Positions 13,902-44,570 of a stretch of DNA of 64,000 nt are shown here, one piece after another. The notes below the pieces were generated by a model. It worked only from the letters and a program-made list of their open reading frames with translations. It made no database searches and had not been told where the DNA came from. The position numbers and the translations under genes are program-made. Within the stretch, counting starts at the first letter, position 1. Each line of letters opens with the position of its first letter. Location: contig CAWFMD010000006.1 in assembly GCA_963816975.1 (NCBI GenBank), positions 1,374,465-1,438,464 on the forward strand, written 5' to 3'. The DNA comes from an uncultured Solirubrobacterales bacterium. Its GTDB lineage: Bacteria > Actinomycetota > Thermoleophilia > Solirubrobacterales > JBBDJG01.

Positions 13902-14909
13902 TCAGCGGCCGAACGTTTCGACGATCGCCTCGTGATAGGTGCGGATGCGGTCGGGGTCGGTCGCCACCACGGGTGCGCCGAGCAGCAGGCGGTCAGCGCT
14001 GCGCGCACGCGTCTCGAGCGCGGCGCGGCATTCGTCGGGGGTACCGGCGACGGCCATCTCGTCGAGCATCTCGTCGGTTACGAGCGCCGTCATCGCGGCC
14101 AGGTCGAAGCTCTTCCACAGATCCCTGATCCGGGCGGCGACGTCCGTGAACCCGTGCAGGTCCAGGATGCGGTCGTACGTGCGCACGGTCGCGTGGAACG
14201 CGATCTGGCGCTTCGCGTCTGCCCGCGCCTGGTCGCGGTCACCCGAGATCGCGAGCAGGACCCAATCGGCGACGGCGACGTCCGCGGGCGAACGGCGCGC
14301 GCGCGCGGCGCCCGCGGCGATCGCCGGGCGCATCACGTCTTGGATGTAGCGCACCGTGGCCATCGGGTGCGCGACGACCCCGTCCGCGATCGCGCCCGCC
14401 ATTCGCGTCATCCCCTCGTTGACCGCCGCGACATAGACGGGGACCCGCGGGCGGACCTGGCCGGCGCGGCCGTAGGGCCGCACGTTCAGGTTGATCAGCT
14501 CTCCCTCATACCGGACGCTGCCGGCCGCGGCTGCGTCCCATACGGCCCGGACCGCCTCGATCGTCTCGCGCAGCCGCGGGGCCGGCTGCTCGGCCGGAGC
14601 CCCCAGCCAGTCGGTGCGCATGCGCCGCGTGCCGGTTCCCAGTCCGAGCAGGAAGCGGCCGCCGGACATCTCGTCGAGATCGAGCGCGGTCACGGCGGTC
14701 AGCAGCGGCGACCGGCCGAACGCCCAAGCGATCGCGGTACCCAGCTCGATCCGCTCGGTCGCGACCGCCGCCGCCGCCAGCGCCAGCGCGCCCGAGTGGT
14801 TGTGGAACTCCGGCGCCCATGCGGAGTCGAAGCCGGCCTCCTCGGCCCGGCACGCGATCGCGACGTTCTCGCGCTGGGTGGGCAGCTCGAGCAGCAGGCC
14901 GAGGCGCAT
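13902..14909 (-). CDS. Luciferase-like monooxygenase (LLM) class oxidoreductase, probably F420-dependent
   Basis: AEEAGFDSAWAPEFH, GRFLLGLGTG and the overall LLM TIM-barrel pattern. Confidence 0.85.
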   Translation of the reverse strand: MRLGLLLELPTQRENVAIACRAEEAGFDSAWAPEFHNHSGALALAAAAVATERIELGTAIAWAFGRSPLLTAVTALDLDEMSGGRFLLGLGTGTRRMRTDWLGAPAEQPAPRLRETIEAVRAVWDAAAAGSVRYEGELINLNVRPYGRAGQVRPRVPVYVAAVNEGMTRMAGAIADGVVAHPMATVRYIQDVMRPAIAAGAARARRSPADVAVADWVLLAISGDRDQARADAKRQIAFHATVRTYDRILDLHGFTDVAARIRDLWKSFDLAAMTALVTDEMLDEMAVAGTPDECRAALETRARSADRLLLGAPVVATDPDRIRTYHEAIVETFGR

Positions 14910-15028: not shown

Positions 15029-15580
15029 ATGACCGCCTATTACGTCCTCGGAATCGCCATGGTCCTGCTGGCGGTCGTGCTTTCCGCGATCGGCCTCACG
15101 CGGGAGGGCTTCCCGTCCAGCCGGGCGGGCGCGCGGGGGATCATGTTCGGGACCGCTGTCCTCGTGCTGACCGGGGCGGTCGTGCTGCTCCTCACGACGC
15201 ACAAGGAGCACCCGCGCGAGGAGGCGGCGGAAAAGGCGAAGCTGGCCGCCGAGCGCCGCGCGGAAGTGCCCGCCGGGGACGAGGCCCAGGGAGCAGGCGC
15301 CGAAACGACGGTGCGCGCGATCGAGAAGGAGTTCTCGATCGACCTCCAGGGGGGGAACACCCTGAAGCCCGGCAGCTATCGCTTCCGGGTCGCCAACGCG
15401 GGGAAGATCGAGCACGATCTCGCGATCGAGGGCGACGGCGTAGAGGAGAAGACCGCGCTGATCGGCCCGGGTGAAGAGGCCGCGCTGGAGGCGGATCTGA
15501 AGCCCGCGCAGTACCGCTTCTACTGCACCGTTCCGGGTCACGCGCAGTCGGGCATGGACATCAAAGTGGCGGTCCGATGA
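15029..15580 (+). CDS. Membrane-anchored cupredoxin (type-1 copper protein)
   Basis: N-terminal TM helices. C-terminal plastocyanin/azurin-like ligand set: H in EHDLAIEG, then C, H and M in FYCTVPGHAQSGM. Confidence 0.8.
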   Translation: MTAYYVLGIAMVLLAVVLSAIGLTREGFPSSRAGARGIMFGTAVLVLTGAVVLLLTTHKEHPREEAAEKAKLAAERRAEVPAGDEAQGAGAETTVRAIEKEFSIDLQGGNTLKPGSYRFRVANAGKIEHDLAIEGDGVEEKTALIGPGEEAALEADLKPAQYRFYCTVPGHAQSGMDIKVAVR

Positions 15581-16484: not shown

Positions 16485-18455
16485 ATGGCCGGGATGGCGG
16501 TCGCCCAGCGCGAGATGAGTTTCCTGCGCCGCATGATGCAGCCGGGCTGGATCCGCGCCGCCTGGATGACGGTGGCCGGTGCCGCGTTCGCCTTCGGGCT
16601 GGTGGTCGGCATCCGGGCGCTGTACGGCACATACGTGCTCGAGGAGGACCCGCTCGTCACGGTCATCCTGATCGTCGCGCCGCTCGCGTTCCTGGTGGGG
16701 ATCGGAGGCTTCGATTACTGGGGCAGGTACATCGTGGGCGCGCCGACCAAGCCCGACGACCACTCGGATCACGGCGCCCGCAGCTGGAAGGACTACTTCA
16801 AGGTCAATACCGACCACAAGGTGATCGGTGTCCAGTACGTGGTCACGGCCCTGTTCTTCATGCTCGTCGGCGGCGCGCTGGCGGAGATGATCCGCGCGGA
16901 GCTTGCGCAGCCGGGGCAGCAGATCGTCGATCCGAACACCTACAACGGCCTGTTCTCGGTGCACGCCGCGCTGATGATCTTCCTGGTCATCATCCCGATC
17001 TTCGCGGGCCTCGCGAACTACGTGCTGCCGCTCATGATCGGCGCGCCCGACATGGCTTTCCCGCGCCTGAACGCGCTCAGCTACTGGCTGCTGCCCGTGG
17101 CCGGAGTGATGATGACCGCCAGCTTCCTCGTGCCGGACGGCGGTGCCTTCAACACCGGCTGGACTGCCTACGCACCGTTATCGGACAACGCGCCGCTGGG
17201 CCAGCAGTTCTTCACGATCGGCGTGCAGTTCGCGGGCACGTCCTCGATCATGACAGCGCTCAACTTCATCGTCACGATCATCACGATGCGCGCGCCCGGC
17301 ATGACGTTCTGGCGCATGCCGCTGCTGGTCTGGGCGAACTTCACCACGTCGCTGCTGGTCGTGATCGCGACACCGTTCGTCGCCGGCTCGCAGTTCCTGA
17401 TCCTGCTCGATCGCACGCTACAGGCGAACTTCTTCGACGCATCGCAGGGCGGGGACGTGATCTCCTACCAGCACATCTTCTGGTTCTACTCCCACCCGGC
17501 CGTCTACATCATGATGCTGCCCGGATTCGGGATCGTCTCGGAGGTGATCTCCACCAAGGCGCGCAAGCCGATCTTCGGCTATCGCCTGATGGCGCTGTCG
17601 CTGATGGCGATCCTGGTGCTGGGCTTCACCGTCTGGGCCCACCACATGTTCGTGTCGGGCATGTGGAGCTGGCTGCGCGTACCGATGATGATCACCACGA
17701 TGCTGATCGCGGTGCCGACCGGGATCAAGATCTTCTCGTGGCTCGCGACGCTGTGGAAAGGCGTGGTCGAGCTGTCCACGCCGATGCTGTTCGCGCTCGG
17801 CTTCATCGCGATGTTCACGCTCGGAGGCATCAGCGGGATCATGCTCGCCGCCATCCCGGTGGACATCCACACCTCGGACACGTACTTCGTGGTCGCGCAC
17901 CTCCACTACGTGCTGTTCGGCGGCAGCATCTTCACGATCTTTGCCGGCATCTACTACTGGTATCCGAAGATGACCGGGCGGATGTACGACGAGCGGCTCG
18001 GCAAGCTCCACTTCTGGATGACGTTCGTCGCCTTCAACGTCACGTTCGGGCCGATGCACTGGGTCGGGCTCGAGGGCATGCCGCGGCGCGTCGCGGACTA
18101 TGCCGACAAGTTCGCTGCATGGAACCTGGTCTCGTCGATCGGCGCCTTCTTCCTCGGGCTCGCGATGCTGGTGTTCGTCTACAACTTCGTCGCGAGCTGG
18201 GTCGGCGGGCCGCGCGCGCCCGGCAACCCGTGGCGGGCGCGCACGCTCGAGTGGCAGGTGTCCTCGCCGCCGCCGATCTTCAACTTCGACGAGATTCCCC
18301 AGGTGGTCGGCGGGCCCTACGAGTACGGCGTCCCCGGCTCGGTGCACGCGGTCCTGGCGGGCGGCGACCGCCAGGAGGTCGCGGTCGGGGCCGACGGCGC
18401 CGGGAACGGGCGGGCGGCGTCGCACGGCAACGGCAACGGTGCGCATCGGGAGTGA
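16485..18455 (+). CDS. ctaD: Cytochrome c oxidase subunit I (with about 105-aa N-terminal extension)
   Basis: Heme-copper oxidase subunit I motifs: NTDHKVIG, MAFPRLN, HPAVYI, WAHHMF, HLHYVLFGG. Confidence 0.95.
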   Translation: MAGMAVAQREMSFLRRMMQPGWIRAAWMTVAGAAFAFGLVVGIRALYGTYVLEEDPLVTVILIVAPLAFLVGIGGFDYWGRYIVGAPTKPDDHSDHGARSWKDYFKVNTDHKVIGVQYVVTALFFMLVGGALAEMIRAELAQPGQQIVDPNTYNGLFSVHAALMIFLVIIPIFAGLANYVLPLMIGAPDMAFPRLNALSYWLLPVAGVMMTASFLVPDGGAFNTGWTAYAPLSDNAPLGQQFFTIGVQFAGTSSIMTALNFIVTIITMRAPGMTFWRMPLLVWANFTTSLLVVIATPFVAGSQFLILLDRTLQANFFDASQGGDVISYQHIFWFYSHPAVYIMMLPGFGIVSEVISTKARKPIFGYRLMALSLMAILVLGFTVWAHHMFVSGMWSWLRVPMMITTMLIAVPTGIKIFSWLATLWKGVVELSTPMLFALGFIAMFTLGGISGIMLAAIPVDIHTSDTYFVVAHLHYVLFGGSIFTIFAGIYYWYPKMTGRMYDERLGKLHFWMTFVAFNVTFGPMHWVGLEGMPRRVADYADKFAAWNLVSSIGAFFLGLAMLVFVYNFVASWVGGPRAPGNPWRARTLEWQVSSPPPIFNFDEIPQVVGGPYEYGVPGSVHAVLAGGDRQEVAVGADGAGNGRAASHGNGNGAHRE

Positions 18456-18456
18456 C

Positions 18457-19323
18457 GTGGAGGCCGCGCAGTCGACACCGTCGCAGCAACCGGCACACGT
18501 GCTCGTCGTGGCGAACGAGACCGTCGGCGGGCAGAAGCTGATCGACGCGATCGAGCGCCGCGCCGCGCGCGGGCCGATCCGCTGCACCGTGGTGTGCCCG
18601 CAGAACACGCCGAGGCGCGGCTTCGTGGTCTATGACGACACAGCGCGCTCCGCCGCCCGTGTGCGCCTGGAGTTGATCCTGCAGCGCCTGCACGAGATGG
18701 GCATCGAGGCGCGCGGTGAGGTGATGGACCCCGAGCCCTATCTGGCGATCCAGGATGCGCTGCGCGAGTGGGGCGGGGACGAGATCATCATCTCCACCTA
18801 CGTCTATCCGCGCTCGGGACTGCTGCGCCGCGATCTGGTCGAGCGCATCGAGAAGTGGTCGGGCCTGCCCGTCGAGCACGTCGTGGTGGACCTGCGCGAG
18901 GAGCCCGTGCGCAACGTGCTGGTGCTCGCCAGCCAGACAGTCGGGGGGCGCAGCCTGATCGAGACGCTCGAGCGACGGTCGACATCTTCGCCGCACCGCT
19001 TCACGGTGATCCTGCCCCCCACGGGGCCCGACGACGACACCGCCCAGCAACGCCTCGACCACACTTTGGACGCGCTGCGCCGCGCCGGCCTCCGGGTGAC
19101 CGGATACGTGGCCGAGCCGGACCCGTTCAACAGCGTCATGAACGCGCTCGGGCACCACCCGGCTGACGAGATCGTGGTGTCGACGCTCCCGACCGGTGAG
19201 TCGCGCTGGCTGCGCGGTGACCTGATCGACAGGCTGCGCAAGGCGACGGCCCGCCCGGTCGAGCACGTGATTTCCGACCCGGCCGAGCAGGGATCGCAGC
19301 CCGCCGAGGCGGTGGCCGGCTGA
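18457..19323 (+). CDS. Uncharacterised protein made of two tandem copies of a ~125-aa alpha/beta domain, embedded in the cta operon
   Basis: GTG 18457 lies 1 nt after the ctaD stop, and the TGA overlaps the ctaE ATG. Internal duplication: HVLVVANETVGGQKLIDAIERR.. and NVLVLASQTVGGRSLIETLERR... The upstream part of track ORF 18100..19323 overlaps ctaD and is rejected. Confidence 0.75.
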   Translation: MEAAQSTPSQQPAHVLVVANETVGGQKLIDAIERRAARGPIRCTVVCPQNTPRRGFVVYDDTARSAARVRLELILQRLHEMGIEARGEVMDPEPYLAIQDALREWGGDEIIISTYVYPRSGLLRRDLVERIEKWSGLPVEHVVVDLREEPVRNVLVLASQTVGGRSLIETLERRSTSSPHRFTVILPPTGPDDDTAQQRLDHTLDALRRAGLRVTGYVAEPDPFNSVMNALGHHPADEIVVSTLPTGESRWLRGDLIDRLRKATARPVEHVISDPAEQGSQPAEAVAG

Positions 19324-19937
19324 TGGAGTCAGCCTCCGTCGCCGCAGGCGCGCACGCCCACGAGCATCACGGCCCGCCCGAGGCTCACAAGAGCTCGCGC
19401 ATCGACTCGCAGCTGCTGGGCGTCCTGCTCTTCATCATCTCCGAGGCGATGCTGTTCGGGTCGTTCTTCACGGCCTACTTCTTCGTTCGCGTCGTACAGA
19501 ACGAGCCGTGGCCGCCGGACCCGTTCGAGTACCCGGTCCTGGTGGCGAGCATGAACACGGCGATCCTGGTGTCATCGAGCTTCACGGTGCACTACGCGCT
19601 GCACTCGATCAAACGTGGCAACCGTCTCGGCATGCAGGTCGGGCTCGTGACGACGTTCCTGCTCGGGGCGATGTTCCTGCTCACGCAGGTGAACGAGTAC
19701 GTCAAGGCCGGTTTCGCGATCTCCGACGGCGCGTTCGCGTCCGTCTTCTACGGCCTCACCGGGCTGCACGGTGCGCACGTCTTCGTGGGGCTCACGCTGC
19801 TGGCGATCATGACCGTGCGCGCGTTTCGCGGCCACTTCAGTCCCGAAGCCCACATGGGCGTCGAGTGTGCGGGCATCTACTGGCACTTCGTGGACGTGAT
19901 GTGGATCGTCGTGTGGAGCACTGTCTACCTTTTGTAG
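19323..19937 (+). CDS. ctaE: Cytochrome c oxidase subunit III
   Basis: LGVLLFIISEAMLFGSFFTAYF, GLHGAHVFVG and YWHFVDVMWIV motifs. Confidence 0.9.
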   Translation: MESASVAAGAHAHEHHGPPEAHKSSRIDSQLLGVLLFIISEAMLFGSFFTAYFFVRVVQNEPWPPDPFEYPVLVASMNTAILVSSSFTVHYALHSIKRGNRLGMQVGLVTTFLLGAMFLLTQVNEYVKAGFAISDGAFASVFYGLTGLHGAHVFVGLTLLAIMTVRAFRGHFSPEAHMGVECAGIYWHFVDVMWIVVWSTVYLL

Positions 19938-20054
19938 CGAGTCCCATCCGAATCAGGGGGTGACGCGATCATCAATCCGCTCCGATCCGAGGAAGACGCT
20001 TTTCGGTTCACGCTGATCGTCGCGGCCCTGCTCGCACCGATCGCGCTGGTCGCG

Positions 20055-20639
20055 GTGATCTGGAGCACCGGCGCGGCGCTGGCCGTGGCCGGCGGTCTTG
20101 CGATCGGCGTCGTCGTCGGCCTGTTCATGCTGAAGCGGGACGAGCCGCGCGAGAAGATGCTCCTCGGCCGCCGCCTCGAGGACCGCCCTGACGGCCGCTA
20201 TCGGATCCTGGTGGTCGCCAACGAGACGCTGTCCGGCAGCGCCCTGCGCGCCGAGATCTCGCGCCGCGGGCACGGCGGGGAGGCCCACCTGAAGGTCGTG
20301 TGCCCGGCCCTCAACAGCAAGATCAAGCACTGGACCAACGAGGAGGACGCGGCCCGCGCGGCGGCCCGCGCGCGCCTCGAGACCTTGCTGGCGGGACTGC
20401 GCGGGGAGGGATTCGACGCCGACGGGGACATCGGCGACGACGACCCCGTGCAGGCCATGGAGGACGAGCTGCGGCGGTTCCCCGCCGACGAGGTGATCAT
20501 CTCCACCCACCCGCCGGGCCGTTCGAACTGGCTCGAGCGTGACGTCGTGGAACGGGCGCGGCAGACCTTCGCGATCGACGTCACCCACGTGGTGGTCGAC
20601 CTCGACCGCGAGGGCGTGGGTCCGGCGCCAGCTACTTGA
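20055..20639 (+). CDS. Membrane-anchored paralogue (third copy) of the cta-embedded domain
   Basis: Hydrophobic N-terminus, then RILVVANETLSGSALRAEISRR..DEVIISTHPPGRSNWLERDVVERA..VTHVVVD. The frame is open back to 19938, but no canonical start lies upstream of GTG 20055. Confidence 0.7.
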   Translation: MIWSTGAALAVAGGLAIGVVVGLFMLKRDEPREKMLLGRRLEDRPDGRYRILVVANETLSGSALRAEISRRGHGGEAHLKVVCPALNSKIKHWTNEEDAARAAARARLETLLAGLRGEGFDADGDIGDDDPVQAMEDELRRFPADEVIISTHPPGRSNWLERDVVERARQTFAIDVTHVVVDLDREGVGPAPAT

Positions 20640-21318
20640 CGGTCAGGTTGCCCTTCATGCCGGCCTGCTCGTGGCCCGGCACCGAGCAGTAGAACTCGTA
20701 CGTCCCGGCCTTCAGGTTCGCGCTCACCTCGGAGACCCCGCCGCCCTGCACGACGGGACCCTCGCCGTCGCCCTTGATCGCGATGTTGTGCGGCACGGAG
20801 GCGTCGTTCTTGGAGCGCAGCGTGATCTTGCCCGGCTTGGCGGTGGCGTCCTTGGCCTGATAGGCGAGCTGGCCGCTGGGGTCCGCCGGGATCGAGACCA
20901 CGTTGTTGGCGTCCGCCGCGGCGGTGCCGGAGGGACCGCCGGCGCCGCCTTCGGCCGCCTTGCCGATCGCACTCGCCACGTAGGCGCCCACGTCGCGCGC
21001 GTCGTCGCCCTTGTACAGGTCGGCCGGCATCTGGTTGCCCTGCGGCAGGTCGATCTGGTTCTCGACCACGGCCGCGATCGTGCTGCGCCCGAGGCCGTCC
21101 GCGATCGACTGCTTGAAGGCCAGGTCGAGGTTCGGCCCCTGCACGCCCTTTGTGCCGGCGTTCTGGAGGATGTGACAGGCGCCGCACTTCTGCGTGAAGA
21201 GCTCCTTGCCGCGGGCGAGGTCAGGCGGGTCCTGGCCGCCGCAGCCGGGGGCGGCCAGCGCGGTCGCGCCGGCGATCACGGCCGCGACCAGGGGGCTTCG
21301 GAGGGGCTTCGACAGCAT
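20632..21318 (-). CDS. Lipoprotein fusing a c-type cytochrome domain to a cupredoxin domain
   Basis: Lipobox LAAPGC, heme-c motif CGACH, distal Met candidate (GNQMPAD), then type-1 Cu ligands (PHNIAIKG, FYCSVPGHEQAGM). ATG 21318 (MLSKPLRS) preferred; the track start is TTG 21360. Confidence 0.8.
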   Translation of the reverse strand: MLSKPLRSPLVAAVIAGATALAAPGCGGQDPPDLARGKELFTQKCGACHILQNAGTKGVQGPNLDLAFKQSIADGLGRSTIAAVVENQIDLPQGNQMPADLYKGDDARDVGAYVASAIGKAAEGGAGGPSGTAAADANNVVSIPADPSGQLAYQAKDATAKPGKITLRSKNDASVPHNIAIKGDGEGPVVQGGGVSEVSANLKAGTYEFYCSVPGHEQAGMKGNLTVK

Positions 21319-21396
21319 CGGCGGTCGGGCATTATCCGCATTTCGGCGGTCGTGTGCCAAACGGGGGGCGCGTACGGCGCCCGATCGGCTACGCGC

Positions 21397-22815
21397 TCAG
21401 CAGCCCGACTGGGGGTCCGACGCGTTCGTCGGGGCACTCGGGCATTCCTCCCAGGTGCTGCGGGTGAAGCCCGACGCCGACCCGGACCCACCGCTGCCGG
21501 GGGGGTTGCTGCTGATGCCCGAGACGTCCCCCTCGACGAAGTTGAGGCCGTTGGTGGCGGTCACGCTCTGGGCGTAGATCGCTCCGTACCAGTTCGTCTT
21601 GTTCGTGAATTTGACGGGCGCATTCGGGGCGAAGAGTGCGGCCCCGAAGCCGGACTGGTTGCTGACGTTGATCTGGGCCGCACCGTAGTAGATGATCTGC
21701 AGCGCGGTCGGGTCGGCGGGCGGGCTGAGCGCCGGGTTGTAGTTCAAGTAGGAGGTATTGGTGATCGTGAACTTGCTGTCGCTGGAGCAGCTCGAGCCCG
21801 GGCGCGAGGATGAGTCGATGAACAACTGGACCTTTGCTCCGTTCAACAACACGATGCTTGTCTTGTTGCTGAACTTCACTTCGCAGAAGTTGAAGATCCA
21901 GTAGCCGCCCGAGCCCGCGCGCGGGTTCTGGCCGGTCAGCGTGAGGGTGGCGTCCCCGCTGTCCTCGAGGCTGCGCGTGCCGCTCGCCGGGTTGTAGTCG
22001 AAGCCGGCGGCGCTGCCGAAGACCGCCGCGTTGTCGTTGTTCGCGGCCAGCGCGGTGTTCGGATTGCCGATCAGCCCGTCGAAGCTGGGCGTCGGCCAGG
22101 GCGTCGGGTTGGGCGGCGCGACGTTGGGGGTGCCGCTGCACGAGTTCGAGATCGTCCCGCTCGGCCCCGGCGCGAAATCGATGCTCGAGGCCGAGCCCGA
22201 GGTCTTGCAGGACTTGAGCTTGAACTCGCCGTTCGTCGCGACCCGGCCCACGATGTCTCCGAAGCCGTTCTGGTTGATGTCGATCGAGCCCAGCCCCGAG
22301 AGTCCCAATCTCGGAAACAGCGGGGTGCTCGCTGCCGCGCTCGCGACCAGGGCCTCGAGGCGGCGCACCACGTTGCCGACCGTCCCGATCGAGGTGATGC
22401 ACCGCTGGATCGGCGTCGCGCCTCCGCTCTGCGCGGTCGTTCCGCCGCAGGCGGTCCCGGCGTCGAGCACGGGGGTCACGTAGTAGGAGTAGGTCGCGCC
22501 GTTGCCCGCGCCTGCGGTGGCCGGCGGGCACTCGCCGGGCGCCGCACCCGACGTGCCCGTCGCGACCGGCTGGTCCGTCAGGCACATGCCGGCTGCGGGG
22601 TCGACCTTGTTGAGGCGGTACCGCGCGATCTGCATGCCGGCCTCCGCCGCGCCGAGCGCGCGCTTCGCGCTGGTGTCCCGGCTCGCGGTGTTGTTGGCCT
22701 GGATCGACGCGCTGAGCACGACCGCGACCAGCAGGAGAACGACCGCCAGCACGGATACCGCGAGCGCCACCGCGACGCCGCTCTCGTCCCGGATCAGGCG
22801 GCGCGACACGCTCAC
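21397..22815 (-). CDS. PilX-N-like large pseudopilin/pilus-associated protein
   Basis: GTG 22815 forms a GTGA overlap with the upstream stop. RDESGVAVALAVSVLAVVLLLVAVVLSASIQ...AKRALGAAEAGMQIA matches the PilX N-terminal pattern. Gly/Thr/Ser/Asn-rich beta-type remainder. Confidence 0.7.
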   Translation of the reverse strand: MSVSRRLIRDESGVAVALAVSVLAVVLLLVAVVLSASIQANNTASRDTSAKRALGAAEAGMQIARYRLNKVDPAAGMCLTDQPVATGTSGAAPGECPPATAGAGNGATYSYYVTPVLDAGTACGGTTAQSGGATPIQRCITSIGTVGNVVRRLEALVASAAASTPLFPRLGLSGLGSIDINQNGFGDIVGRVATNGEFKLKSCKTSGSASSIDFAPGPSGTISNSCSGTPNVAPPNPTPWPTPSFDGLIGNPNTALAANNDNAAVFGSAAGFDYNPASGTRSLEDSGDATLTLTGQNPRAGSGGYWIFNFCEVKFSNKTSIVLLNGAKVQLFIDSSSRPGSSCSSDSKFTITNTSYLNYNPALSPPADPTALQIIYYGAAQINVSNQSGFGAALFAPNAPVKFTNKTNWYGAIYAQSVTATNGLNFVEGDVSGISSNPPGSGGSGSASGFTRSTWEECPSAPTNASDPQSGC

Positions 22816-23477
22816 GAGCCCTTCCTCGCGTTCGGGTCCGTTGCCACGGCGGAGAACAGCAGCGGCTTGCGGGCGCTGCCCGTGACCGTCACCGCCACCG
22901 TGATTCGCTTGTAGTCGGAGGTGATCGCCTGGTCCGCGGAGCTGGAGCACGATGTGCACGGGTCGTCGATCGAGGTGATGAACCTGTAGAGGCTCCCGGT
23001 CAGTCCCCCGGCGCTCCACGAGATCGGGCCGGGGGCCGTGGTCCCGCTCGCGTTGATCACCAGCGGGGCGACCGTCGCCGATGAGGCGGGGGCACTCTGG
23101 TCCCACTGGTAGCACGAGCTTGCGGAGGCGGGACAGCCCGAGGCGCCACTCGCGTAGACGTAGTAGCGGGGATCGCCCGGGTTCGTGCTCGCGGCGGGAG
23201 CCGCGTTGGTCGCGATCGATGCGTAGCCTCCCGCGAGCAGCCGTTCGAGGTCCTGCTGCGCGACGTGCGCGGCGGCCTGCTTGTTCTCCGAGCTGACGGT
23301 CAGCCTGCGGGAGCTGTCGAGCGCCATCGCCGCTCCCAGGAGGCCGACGGACAGCATCATGATCGCCACCAGCAGCTCGATCATCGTGAAGCCGCGCTCG
23401 TGGAGCAGCCGGCGGCGGGCCCGTCCAGCCAGGGGCGGCCCCGCGGTGGCGAGCGCTTTCAGCGCGTGCGACGTCAC
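22812..23477 (-). CDS. Type IV pilin-like protein with prepilin cleavage/methylation motif
   Basis: ERG/FTMIELLVAIMMLSVGLLG (G-1, E+5, hydrophobic helix). Track coordinates used. Confidence 0.8.
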   Translation of the reverse strand: MTSHALKALATAGPPLAGRARRRLLHERGFTMIELLVAIMMLSVGLLGAAMALDSSRRLTVSSENKQAAAHVAQQDLERLLAGGYASIATNAAPAASTNPGDPRYYVYASGASGCPASASSCYQWDQSAPASSATVAPLVINASGTTAPGPISWSAGGLTGSLYRFITSIDDPCTSCSSSADQAITSDYKRITVAVTVTGSARKPLLFSAVATDPNARKGS

Positions 23478-24088
23478 TGGGTTCCGAGATTCCTGGGGTA
23501 GAAGCCATCGTCCAGGGTGATGTTTCGGCTGTAGCCGGTCGAGCCTCCAGCGTTGGCGGGCACGACGACGGTGGCCTGGACGAACGTCGGATTAATCGCG
23601 TCCGGCGTGAAGCTGAAGACGCCCGGGTTGGACGGCGCCGCCGCGGTCCCGTTCAGGACCCGGTCCACGATCACAGGCGCGCTTCCGGTACTCGGCGCGG
23701 CCGTGAGCGTCGTGCTGGCAGCCCGCACGCACTGGCGATAGCTGACCCCCGAAGGCTGCACGTCGCACTTGTAGACGACGCGCGTCGGCACTCCCGCGAT
23801 CGCGATCTTGACGTCCATCGTGCTCGCGCTCGCCGCATAGATGGTGCTGGCCTGGCGCAGCTCGCGGGTCATGCGATGGAGGCCGACCTGGACCGCGCGG
23901 GCGGCTTGGCCGGCTGCGATCTCGCGCCTGGCGACCTTGTCCGTGACGTTGTAGAAGCCGAACAGCGACAGCATGACCACGACGAACCCCGACATCACTG
24001 CCAGCAGCTCGATCAGCGAGAACCCGGCCTCGCCGCCGAGCAGGCGCGCAGCTCCACGTGGAGCCTTCCGTGGCATCCAGTTGGACAT
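23474..24088 (-). CDS. Type IV pilin-like protein with prepilin cleavage/methylation motif
   Basis: GEAG/FSLIELLAVMSGFVVVMLSLFG. ATG 24088 (MSNWMPRKAPRG) chosen, because the track ORF start 24205 would run into the tRNA gene. Confidence 0.8.
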   Translation of the reverse strand: MSNWMPRKAPRGAARLLGGEAGFSLIELLAVMSGFVVVMLSLFGFYNVTDKVARREIAAGQAARAVQVGLHRMTRELRQASTIYAASASTMDVKIAIAGVPTRVVYKCDVQPSGVSYRQCVRAASTTLTAAPSTGSAPVIVDRVLNGTAAAPSNPGVFSFTPDAINPTFVQATVVVPANAGGSTGYSRNITLDDGFYPRNLGTQ

Positions 24089-24169
24089 TCGACCTATGTG
24101 TGATCGGCTACTTCGGCCCAGGGGTTGAGCGGAAACGCGGTTTTCCGTCGCCTCCCTCCTGACGCGCAG

Positions 24170-24242
24170 AGCCGGAGAGGGGACTCGAACCCCTGGCCCC
24201 GTCATTACAAGTGACGTGCTCTACCAACTGAGCTACTCCGGC
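24170..24242 (-). tRNA. tRNA-Thr (anticodon UGU)
   Basis: Minus strand reads GCCGGAGTAGCTCAGTTGGTAGAGCACGTCACTTGTAATGACGGGGCCAGGGGTTCGAGTCCCCTCTCCGGCT. Acceptor stem GCCGGAG/CTCCGGC, D arm GCTC/GAGC, anticodon stem CGTCA/TGACG with loop CTTGTAA, T arm AGGGG-TTCGAGT-CCCCT. 73 nt, CCA not encoded. Confidence 0.9.
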
Positions 24243-43129: not shown

Positions 43130-43312
43130 AACCTTCTCGAGCCGCTGAGTTCTCCCCGTGGCGGCCAGGACGGCCAAGCGGGGCGAAGCGGGGGAACCAA
43201 AGGCCAGCAGTGGGCGCCGGTTGGCGCCCTCGGGGCTAATCGCCGCGAGCCTCTTCGACGGTGTAGCGCCAGCTCTTCCGGCGCGAGTCCGACAGCTAAC
43301 CCCGTAAGCGTT
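43130..43312 (+). promoter_or_regulatory. Candidate ydaO/yuaA-type (cyclic-di-AMP) riboswitch in the leader of the M23 peptidase gene
   Basis: The 322-nt non-coding leader contains the blocks I associate with this motif: GCCGCUGAGUUC, GCGGGGGAACCAAA, CGGGGCUAAUCGCC and the 3' signature GAGUCCGACAGCUAACCCCGUAAGCG, which ends 12 nt before the ATG. The 5' boundary is approximate. Confidence 0.65.
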
Positions 43313-43322
43313 GGAAAGAGAC

Positions 43323-44570
43323 ATGGTGGATCCAAGCCCTTCGGGCCCCAGCAGGGGCCTCGCACGAACAACCGATGCTCGTACGCCAAGGCAGGCAGCC
43401 GCGCTCGCGGCTGGGCTGTTGTTGAGCGCCCTCGCGCTCATCGCCCTTGCTCCCGATGCGTCGCGCTCCGCATCGCTCCAGGCGATCCAGGCGAACATCA
43501 CCGAGAAGCAGGACGCGATCGAGAATGCGCAGGCGCAGGAGGGCGTGCTCACCGGCGACATCAGCGCGCTGTCCCGGCGAATCCGCACGCTCACGCGAGA
43601 GATCGGGTCGCTGCGCCGGCGTGAGGCGCGCGTCCAGAACACGCTCGACGCGCGGCGCGCGCAGCTCGCCCGTGTGCAGGCGCGCTACCAGGTCGAGCAC
43701 CGGCGATTCGTGCGCTTGCGCAGGGAGCTGCACCGCTCGCAGATCGTGCTGGCGCAGCGCCTGATCGAGATCTACAAGTCGGACCAGCCGGACATGCTGT
43801 CGGTGATCCTCGAGTCCGACGGCTTCAACGATCTGCTCGTGCGCGCCGACTACATGAGCGCGATCGGCGAGCAGGACTCCGTGATCGTCGACAAGGTGCG
43901 TGCCCTGAAGAAGAAGTCCGCGCAGAAGCGGCTGCTGCTCGTCGTGCTGAAGTCGCAGGCCGAGGTGGCGGTGCGGGTGATCGAGGCAAAGCAGCGCGAG
44001 CTCGAGCAGGCACGCGCGGCGATCCAGGCCAACGAAGCCGATCTCGCATCGGCGCGGCGCTACAAGTTCGGCAAGCTCGGCAACGTGAAGGCGCATCGCC
44101 ATGAGCTGGAGGGTGACCTGCGCGAGTTGCAGGCCGCGTCGGCCCAGGTGACGAACCAGCTGCAGGCCGGGGGCCCCGCGCCCGCGGGCCCGATCCGCCA
44201 GGGCGGAGGGGGGTACATCTGGCCGGTGAACGGCCCGGTCGTGTCGCCCTTCGGGATGCGCTGGGGGCGCCTGCACGCGGGCGTCGACATCGCGGTGCCG
44301 GCCGGCACGCCGATTCGGGCCGCGGCCAGCGGCACGGTCGCGATGGCGGGGTGGATGGGCGGCTACGGGCAGTACACGTGCATCCAGCACGGCGGTGGCG
44401 TCGCCACCTGCTACGCACACCAGTCGTCGATCGGGGTCGGCGCGGGCGCGAGCGTCAAGCAGGGCCAGGTGATCGGGTCGGTCGGTTGCACCGGTCACTG
44501 CTTCGGCGACCACCTGCACTTCGAGGTCCGGATCAACGGGTCCCCGGTGGACCCGATGGGCTACCTCTAG
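43323..44570 (+). CDS. M23 family metallopeptidase with N-terminal signal/anchor and coiled-coil region
   Basis: C-terminal LytM/M23 motifs HAGVDIAVPAGTPI and GHCFGDHLHFEV. Long heptad-like region before them. ATG 43323 sits behind GGAAAGAG. Confidence 0.85.
   Translation: MVDPSPSGPSRGLARTTDARTPRQAAALAAGLLLSALALIALAPDASRSASLQAIQANITEKQDAIENAQAQEGVLTGDISALSRRIRTLTREIGSLRRREARVQNTLDARRAQLARVQARYQVEHRRFVRLRRELHRSQIVLAQRLIEIYKSDQPDMLSVILESDGFNDLLVRADYMSAIGEQDSVIVDKVRALKKKSAQKRLLLVVLKSQAEVAVRVIEAKQRELEQARAAIQANEADLASARRYKFGKLGNVKAHRHELEGDLRELQAASAQVTNQLQAGGPAPAGPIRQGGGGYIWPVNGPVVSPFGMRWGRLHAGVDIAVPAGTPIRAAASGTVAMAGWMGGYGQYTCIQHGGGVATCYAHQSSIGVGAGASVKQGQVIGSVGCTGHCFGDHLHFEVRINGSPVDPMGYL

Follow-up and report, generated by a model that had tools for sequence, protein, structure and literature searches.

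In the 64,000-nucleotide (nt) stretch of DNA analysed here, from an uncultured Solirubrobacterales bacterium (contig CAWFMD010000006.1; hereafter the window), Pfam identifies genes for COX2, COX1 and COX3 in one co-oriented cluster on the plus strand, the arrangement of an A-family haem-copper oxidase operon. Two further genes of this cluster encode proteins built from a domain that resembles the universal stress protein (USP) fold: a soluble tandem protein encoded between subunits I and III, and a membrane-anchored protein encoded after subunit III. The cluster and its convergent neighbour comprise seven genes:

15029-15580 (+): membrane-anchored cupredoxin (blue copper protein) that opens the cluster, a candidate electron donor; Pfam Copper-bind, E = 2.8e-07; same place in the two relatives L001 and L002
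15636-16439 (+): ctaC, cytochrome c oxidase subunit II, with the CuA motif CTELCGLGHSTM; Pfam COX2, E = 2.4e-14, and COX2_TM, E = 4.2e-12
16485-18455 (+): ctaD, subunit I, 656 amino acids (aa) with N- and C-terminal extensions; Pfam COX1, E = 4.1e-160, residues 114-556
18457-19323 (+): tandem USP-like (TT0030-type) protein, 288 aa, soluble; assigned from its internal repeat, AlphaFold, Foldseek and the position of its orthologues
19323-19937 (+): ctaE, subunit III, 204 aa; Pfam COX3, E = 9.2e-46
19968-20639 (+): membrane-anchored USP-like protein, 223 aa if started at ATC 19968; assigned from orthologue starts and its position after COX3
20632-21360 (-): convergent cytochrome c-cupredoxin fusion, a candidate electron donor; Pfam Cytochrom_C, E = 1.2e-07, and Copper-bind, E = 1.9e-09; kept in L001 and L002

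The 288-aa open reading frame (ORF) is tied to its neighbours on both sides. Its GTG (18457) lies 1 nt past the TGA of ctaD (18453-18455), and its own TGA (19321-19323) shares its A with the ATG of ctaE (19323-19325), giving CTGATGG at 19320-19326. Both the coordinates and the two-sided coupling agree with the original prediction, an earlier reading of this DNA. The convergent cytochrome c-cupredoxin gene overlaps the anchored gene by 8 nt at its 3' end. A consensus scan found no promoter-like or terminator-like sites above shuffle expectation inside the cluster.

The two proteins share three copies of one domain, two in the tandem protein and one in the anchored protein:

18496-18897 (+): copy 1, with motifs VVANETVGG, VVCPQ, DPEP, DEIIIST, RSGLLRRD and PVEHVVVD; alignments, and a match to Protein Data Bank (PDB) entry 2IEL (E = 4.5e-5, residues 15-143)
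18913-19284 (+): copy 2, in which the beta2-alpha2 loop is shorter; alignments
20196-20606 (+): copy 3, the most conserved of the three, with motifs ILVVANETLSG, VVCPALN, DPVQAMEDEL, DEVIISTHPPGRSNWLERD and THVVVDL; alignments

Copies 1 and 2 are 39% identical (E = 6e-29), so that the 288-aa ORF is an internal duplication, and copy 3, encoded after ctaE, is 44% identical to copy 1 (E = 3e-20) and 31% identical to copy 2 (E = 3e-15). The duplication and the third copy had both been proposed from the sequence, and these alignments bear them out. By tblastn there is no fourth copy elsewhere in the 64-kb window. A metagenomic protein of 324 aa (P0242) consists of two domains of the anchored type (VVCPALNS...STHPEGRSNWLERD) in a soluble tandem without the membrane hairpin, and shows further shuffling of the module.

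We then considered which family the domain belongs to. Neither window protein reaches any Pfam or NCBIfam model. For PF00582, the Usp family, there was no match for either at E ≤ 1; weak sub-threshold matches appeared in 7 of 35 orthologues (best 1.2e-5), and a profile of the domain found UspF at E = 0.003 and MJ0577 at E = 0.26. A closer relative is TT0030 of Thermus thermophilus (PDB 2IEL, labelled 'hypothetical protein'), which phmmer aligns across all of copy 1. Foldseek superimposes it with a TM-score of 0.73-0.74, a root-mean-square deviation of 3.6-3.7 Å and 28-30% identity, and 18 columns are invariant between the window domains and TT0030, placing the domain in a TT0030-like family. 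We found no function or paper for TT0030/2IEL in the searchable literature. The original prediction had described the domain as unrecognised; this stands as far as Pfam and NCBIfam are concerned, but the structure of one relative has been solved, and the domain falls, as a divergent member, within the USP/HUP fold class, with TT0030 as its nearest relative. Judged by the family models and sequence motifs, it is neither a PF00582 protein nor a USP of the ATP type.

Structure prediction is consistent with this placement. The AlphaFold model of the tandem protein, built from 35 orthologues, has a mean predicted local distance difference test (pLDDT) score of 76.6 and the strand and helix order b-a-b-a-b-a-b-a-b, twice, which is the USP-type alpha/beta fold; in the model of a natural fusion protein (P0394, below) the tandem module reaches pLDDT ≥90. 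The best Foldseek matches in the PDB are tandem USPs, namely YdaA/UspE (4R2K/5CB0, 3OLQ), Rv2623 (3CIS) and TTHA0350 (3AB8), with E-values from 2.6e-6 to 1e-3, a probability of 1.0 and about 300 aligned columns, so the architecture is that of a tandem USP. Single USP domains also match, among them the c-di-AMP-binding USP domain of KdpD (7JI4) and the cAMP-binding MSMEG_3811 (5AHW), both with a TM-score of ~0.66, and ThiI and TsaN are among the weak-scoring matches. These results uphold the Rossmann- or USP-like fold suggested earlier. In an alignment of the three window copies, two copy 3 orthologues and TT0030 (A2), the polar positions that do not vary are T, P and S-T, which follow beta1, beta2 and beta4 respectively, an S in the loop behind the last of these and an H in the final strand. 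Going by USP topology, these residues would line the usual ligand crevice. The family is large: a search of 1.84 billion representatives with a profile of the three window copies gave 4912 clusters (50% identity) at E ≤ 1e-3 and 2364 at E ≤ 1e-10, with single (130-170 aa), tandem (~285 aa) and anchored (~220 aa) architectures among the matches.

The arrangement in the window is conserved. Scanning one genome per species in GTDB with alignment A3 as the query returned at least 528 relatives; our linkage survey covers the best 80 of these loci, onto which the window proteins were mapped by tblastn, with the remaining 448 or more and other phyla outside the survey. All 80 loci belong to the class Thermoleophilia (Solirubrobacterales, Gaiellales/Gaiellaceae and unclassified metagenome-assembled genomes). 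COX1, tandem, COX3 and anchored genes follow one another on the same strand in 62 of the 80 genomes, and 13 further loci are consistent with this order as far as the contig or the alignments extend. A tandem orthologue lies between COX1 and COX3 at 69 loci, and COX3 is immediately upstream of the anchored gene at 75 of the 78 loci with a full anchored match. The projected gaps are short, with medians of -14 nt from tandem stop to COX3 start and +10 nt from COX3 stop to anchored start. L001 and L002, which lie on long contigs, have the same seven-gene arrangement as the window, including COX2-COX1-tandem-COX3-anchored, and L001 also has the overlapping tandem stop and COX3 start. At one locus (L056) the anchored gene adjoins the operon on the opposite strand.

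The link to an aa3-type oxidase that had been suggested for the window is strong and no accident: it extends to at least 62 of 80 Thermoleophilia genomes and, as described below, to a COX1 fusion in Miltoncostaeaceae. A survey of homologues across Actinomycetota had been proposed with it; the linkage is found in Thermoleophilia and is not general to Actinomycetota, the best 80 loci all being from that one class. A genome paper on Gaiella occulta names the oxidase genes Gocc_0001, 0002 and 0004 and skips 0003 (PMC6741124). Judged from the numbering alone, the gap fits a gene that the paper passes over without comment, located between those for subunits I and III of this cultured strain. Beyond this gap, the searchable literature gave us nothing relevant on Miltoncostaea or Thermoleophilia oxidases, and no account of a haem-copper oxidase that has USP-like subunits or is fused to them.

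In Miltoncostaeaceae COX1 continues in frame, beyond its C-terminus, into the tandem module. Among the representatives that the profile search gave, P0332 and P0381 have a Pfam COX1 match joined to the tandem module, and a search with P0381 recovered about 30 proteins covering at least 84% of the fusion, several of which NCBI labels 'cytochrome c oxidase subunit I, partial [Miltoncostaeaceae bacterium]'. The frame is uninterrupted in P0394 (723 aa) and P0414 (763 aa), running from COX1 through a linker of 15-20 residues into the tandem, with the junction FNFDxxPQVVGGPYQYG(V/I)P.ARHAV(I/V)FAP, linker, then (I/V)LV(L/V)ANET. In P0402, residues 1-352 correspond to window COX1 273-624 (68% identity) and residues 362-610 match the 288-aa ORF (E = 9e-29). 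These fusions come from independent Illumina-type assemblies (P0394, P0402, P0414 and P0381; L088 and L089), and on two independent short-read contigs, L088 (NCBI) and L089 (JGI), the fusion gene is followed directly by COX3 and then by a cytochrome c gene. Among long family members COX1 was the only fusion partner found. No other available evidence speaks as strongly for a physical action of the tandem protein on the oxidase as does its stable covalent fusion to the C-terminal, cytoplasmic end of subunit I.

Several other candidate fusions were rejected: P0294 and the window ORF 18100-19323 are out-of-frame readings of ctaD, and P0270, P0430 and L087 contain frameshifted stretches from error-prone assemblies. 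The C-terminal tail of window COX1 (18360-18452) is low in complexity, rich in Gly, Ala and Asn, and resembles the linker of the fused forms.

The anchored gene required a second look at its start. Its frame is open from 19938, and GTG 20055, the start in the original prediction, is the first canonical one. In two relatives the orthologue starts 29 codons further upstream with M/V-INPLRSEEDAFRF, and the orthologue N-terminal pattern M/V-(I/R)-NP(L/F)RSE..AFRF begins where the window has ATC 19968. At the equivalent position 71 of 80 orthologues from other species have ATG, GTG or TTG/CTG. A GGGGG run resembling a Shine-Dalgarno sequence lies 7 nt upstream of ATC 19968, and the amino-acid sequence upstream of 20055 is almost identical to that of L001. 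Because the orthologue starts align at 19968, the GGGGG run precedes it and the N-terminal sequence is conserved, the anchored gene most likely spans 19968-20639 (223 aa); a start at GTG 20055 would delete helix 1. The non-canonical ATC (within window 19956-19973) either serves as a rare AUC start or stems from a recent mutation or an error in sequencing. An anchored copy after ctaE was thus correctly foreseen, but with a start at 20055 and one anchor where there are two hydrophobic helices:

19974-20009 (+): conserved N-terminal peptide NPLRSEEDAFRF, predicted to be cytoplasmic; NPx[RSK][STD]ExxA[FY] in orthologues
20007-20135 (+): two hydrophobic helices, approximately residues 14-33 and 35-56, with a very short turn between them; Kyte-Doolittle scan

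Orthologues keep the motif NPx[RSK][STD]ExxA[FY] in 77 of 80 cases, whereas the transmembrane residues vary. Helix 2 is followed by a basic stretch, KRDEPRE, and then by the domain. With two helices and the positive-inside rule, both the N-terminus and the domain of the anchored protein would face the cytoplasm. Known subunit IV families (COX4_pro, Cyt_c_ox_IV and related) were tried for the hairpin and rejected, as searches of Pfam and the PDB lent no support and gave only weak matches typical of transmembrane composition. In Pfam these were sub-threshold matches to DUF2244 and DUF6232; the former, an integral membrane protein family, did so in 12 of 22 orthologous hairpin regions (window 19968-20135, alignment A5; best E = 7e-4), possibly through transmembrane composition only.

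Starting from the established anatomy of the locus, its fold class, conserved synteny and COX1 fusion, we propose that the A-family (aa3-type) oxidase of Thermoleophilia has two lineage-specific accessory subunits that face the cytoplasm, the tandem and the anchored protein, and that these most likely act as a ligand sensor; on the sequence evidence we rate this proposal as a whole slightly better than an even chance. Its parts differ in strength. Physical association with the oxidase in organisms where the genes are unfused is quite likely, judging from gene order and fusion. A regulatory, ligand-sensing role, argued by analogy with other USP-fold proteins, falls somewhat short of even. The two proteins would share an mRNA with subunits I and III and, being translationally coupled to them, would probably be produced in matched amounts. 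We infer that the modules lie on the cytoplasmic, proton-uptake side, where the tandem protein would act at the C-terminal tail of subunit I, its site of fusion in Miltoncostaeaceae. Copy 3 would be held at the membrane by the two-helix hairpin, encoded in the slot after ctaE that in other bacteria belongs to subunit IV. The N-terminal peptide of the anchored protein may be a docking element, since it is conserved in nearly all orthologues while the transmembrane residues drift. The polar crevice residues could bind a small phosphate-containing or nucleotide-like ligand, and binding could tune the activity, assembly, stability or oligomeric state of the oxidase. We prefer ligand-dependent tuning because sensing of small molecules is typical of USP-fold domains and because this domain conserves a polar crevice of its own. 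A more specific version, in which the modules, on binding a nucleotide or second messenger, gate turnover or the uptake of protons, thereby placing Thermoleophilia respiration under direct allosteric control, is speculative and on balance unlikely. If true, bacteria would have their own counterpart of the ATP/ADP control of the mitochondrial oxidase, possibly used to throttle respiration during dormancy in soil.

Several observations weigh against this proposal. Three loci (L009, L061 and L070) have COX1-COX3-anchored without a tandem gene, an absence confirmed in L009 by reading its ORFs (L009 5126-6476); the fused lineage (L088 and L089) has no anchored copy; and L082 has an anchored gene with no cox gene within 10 kb. 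Neither component, accordingly, is indispensable. TT0030-like single-domain relatives are not linked to cox genes in the three cases examined (L084, the Thermus TT0030 locus, and the metagenome contigs L085 and L086), where the neighbourhoods hold alcohol dehydrogenase and LptFG genes, Usp, Asp23 and sigma factor genes, and arginine- and tryptophan-related genes. Because these single-domain relatives sit in such unrelated surroundings, the oxidase link is a property of the Thermoleophilia clade of the family and not of the domain in general. The hairpin shows no detectable similarity to known subunit IV families, either in Pfam searches with the protein and 22 orthologous N-termini or with an N-terminal profile against the PDB. 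In the AlphaFold model of the fusion P0394 the linker comes out disordered and the truncated COX1 is poorly modelled; the predicted template modelling (pTM) score is 0.45, with no confident pose for docking on COX1. Finally, as originally predicted, the domain lacks the G-2x-G-9x-G(S/T) motif that marks the ATP-binding USP subclass (MJ0577/UspFG type): UspF 'HRPDITTYLLGS' aligns with the family sequence 'lppgrsrwLrrd', so that the terminal G-S is replaced by R-D, and the family does not keep the glycines before it. A domain that lacks the classical ATP motif may bind no ligand at all.

This last point leads to the main rival, in which the proteins are purely structural subunits that have lost ligand binding, their USP-like domains serving only to stabilise the oxidase complex or to bring about its dimerisation or its assembly into supercomplexes. 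Dimerisation is habitual among USP domains, and the strongly conserved last strand, PV.HV, falls where USPs usually dimerise, as placed from general knowledge of USP structures. Coupled and fused genes are typical of structural subunits, a tandem and an anchored copy could bridge complexes, and the missing ATP motif fits as well. A pure scaffold, however, would not need conserved crevice residues, and T, S-T, S, R, D and H are kept across paralogues at 30-44% identity and in free-standing TT0030; either component has also been lost in some lineages. We regard a purely structural role as rather improbable, if less so than the other alternatives.

Those alternatives fit the fusion poorly. The HUP fold class includes nucleotide-using enzymes, and HUP-fold proteins might act on the cytoplasmic side as assembly or maturation factors of subunit I, handling haem a or newly made COX1, for instance, without belonging to the mature enzyme. 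The place beside ctaD and the weak fold matches to ThiI and TsaN would suit such factors, but a permanent covalent fusion to COX1 in Miltoncostaeaceae would be unusual for a transient one, catalytic HUP motifs such as SGGxDS and HxGH are not among the conserved positions, and the tandem and anchored genes do not replace the known assembly genes ctaA, ctaB and ctaG. We give this explanation little credence. Even less probable is that the proteins are ordinary stress proteins that ride in the operon, co-expressed with the oxidase and serving an unrelated cellular role. Membership of the USP fold class and the unrelated or general stress neighbourhoods of free-standing relatives (L084-L086) would be expected of such passengers, but the place between subunits I and III has been kept across at least two orders, stop and start overlap in both the window and L001, and, as the most telling point, COX1 and the module form an in-frame fusion. 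Accessory subunits of the oxidase that may sense a ligand are thus the reading that we carry forward, the choice between a regulatory and a merely structural role being one of interpretation.

Comparison with known systems helps to define what is distinctive about these proteins. TT0030 belongs to the same domain family and has the T (beta1 loop), P, S-T, S.WL and H-V positions in common with the window copies, but is a single soluble domain of 138 aa, free-standing and without cox neighbours in Thermus. Tandem USPs such as UspE/YdaA (5CB0/4R2K), Rv2623 (3CIS) and TTHA0350 (3AB8) likewise have two USP-fold domains in a chain of about 290 aa; the window protein differs in falling below PF00582, in lacking G-2x-G-9x-G(S/T) and in being encoded inside, or fused to, oxidase genes. 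USP domains are widely used on transporters, and sensor modules such as the KdpD USP resemble the window proteins in that a USP-fold domain is attached to, or works with, a membrane protein. The KdpD USP (7JI4) and MSMEG_3811 (5AHW) bind a nucleotide second messenger, c-di-AMP and cAMP respectively, without the classical ATP motif. Here the partner is a haem-copper oxidase, and the likeness is one of fold.

On the oxidase side, bacterial A-type enzymes can carry a subunit IV, as with CtaF of Bacillus and Actinomycetota or the two-helix subunit IV of Thermus caa3. The anchored protein is similar in being encoded after ctaE and in contributing a short helical membrane element without a cofactor; it differs in having no sequence similarity to subunit IV, a conserved N-terminal peptide and a 135-aa domain predicted to be cytoplasmic. 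Mitochondrial cytochrome c oxidase is under nucleotide (ATP/ADP) control through its nuclear-encoded subunits IV/VIa. The concept of supernumerary subunits on the N side that couple oxidase activity to energy state would be the same, whereas the proteins and folds are unrelated and the analogy is here purely hypothetical.

Other features of the window may be recorded. The N-terminal extension of COX1 (~110 aa, window 16485-16825) has two extra hydrophobic segments and a His-rich stretch, DHSDHGARSWKDYF. Close relatives keep both the cupredoxin (15029-15580) and the cytochrome c-cupredoxin (20632-21360), which resemble dedicated electron donors; the loci of Gaiellales and Miltoncostaeaceae carry a plain cytochrome c there instead. 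Upstream of the cluster, ORF 13902-14909 (-) is divergent, and a gene of the same place and orientation in L001 and L002 is annotated as a luciferase-like monooxygenase (PF00296). On the other side, a run of minus-strand ORFs at 21397-24242 has prepilin-type N-termini (GFTMIELLVA, GFSLIELLAV), which suggests a type IV pilin or pseudopilin cluster; a tRNA-Thr(TGT) gene at 24169-24242 overlaps the 5' end of the longest reading of its last ORF. Further away, a c-di-AMP (ydaO-type) riboswitch (Rfam RF00379, 62 bits) at window 43133-43325 (+) precedes ORF 43311-44570 (+), whose sequence has the appearance of a coiled-coil region and, after it, a peptidase domain of the M23/LytM type. This arrangement would be ordinary for actinobacteria and shows that the organism uses c-di-AMP signalling.

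To our knowledge, bacterial A-type oxidases are regarded as minimal three- or four-subunit enzymes without cytoplasmic regulatory parts, and control by supernumerary oxidase subunits is considered a mitochondrial speciality. What is new here is the kind of accessory module that a familiar enzyme carries, itself drawn from a familiar fold: throughout a whole class of soil Actinomycetota that are abundant, the oxidase operon includes a conserved domain module that is predicted to be cytoplasmic and, in one family, is fused to the catalytic subunit. Collectively, the data point to a cytoplasmic module, not described before, that would assist or control respiration. Its anatomy and conservation are solid and would surprise a bioenergetics specialist, the phenomenon being so far confined to one class. 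The oxidase operon also provides a first functional context for a domain family of several thousand clusters that has a crystal structure but neither a family model nor an assigned role. Cultured members such as Gaiella occulta appear, from the gap in gene numbering (PMC6741124), to carry the gene, which makes the proposal directly testable. Should the module prove to be a sensor, it would serve as a simple bacterial model of a terminal oxidase under direct metabolic control, and would hint at the way in which slow-growing bacteria in soil manage their respiration.

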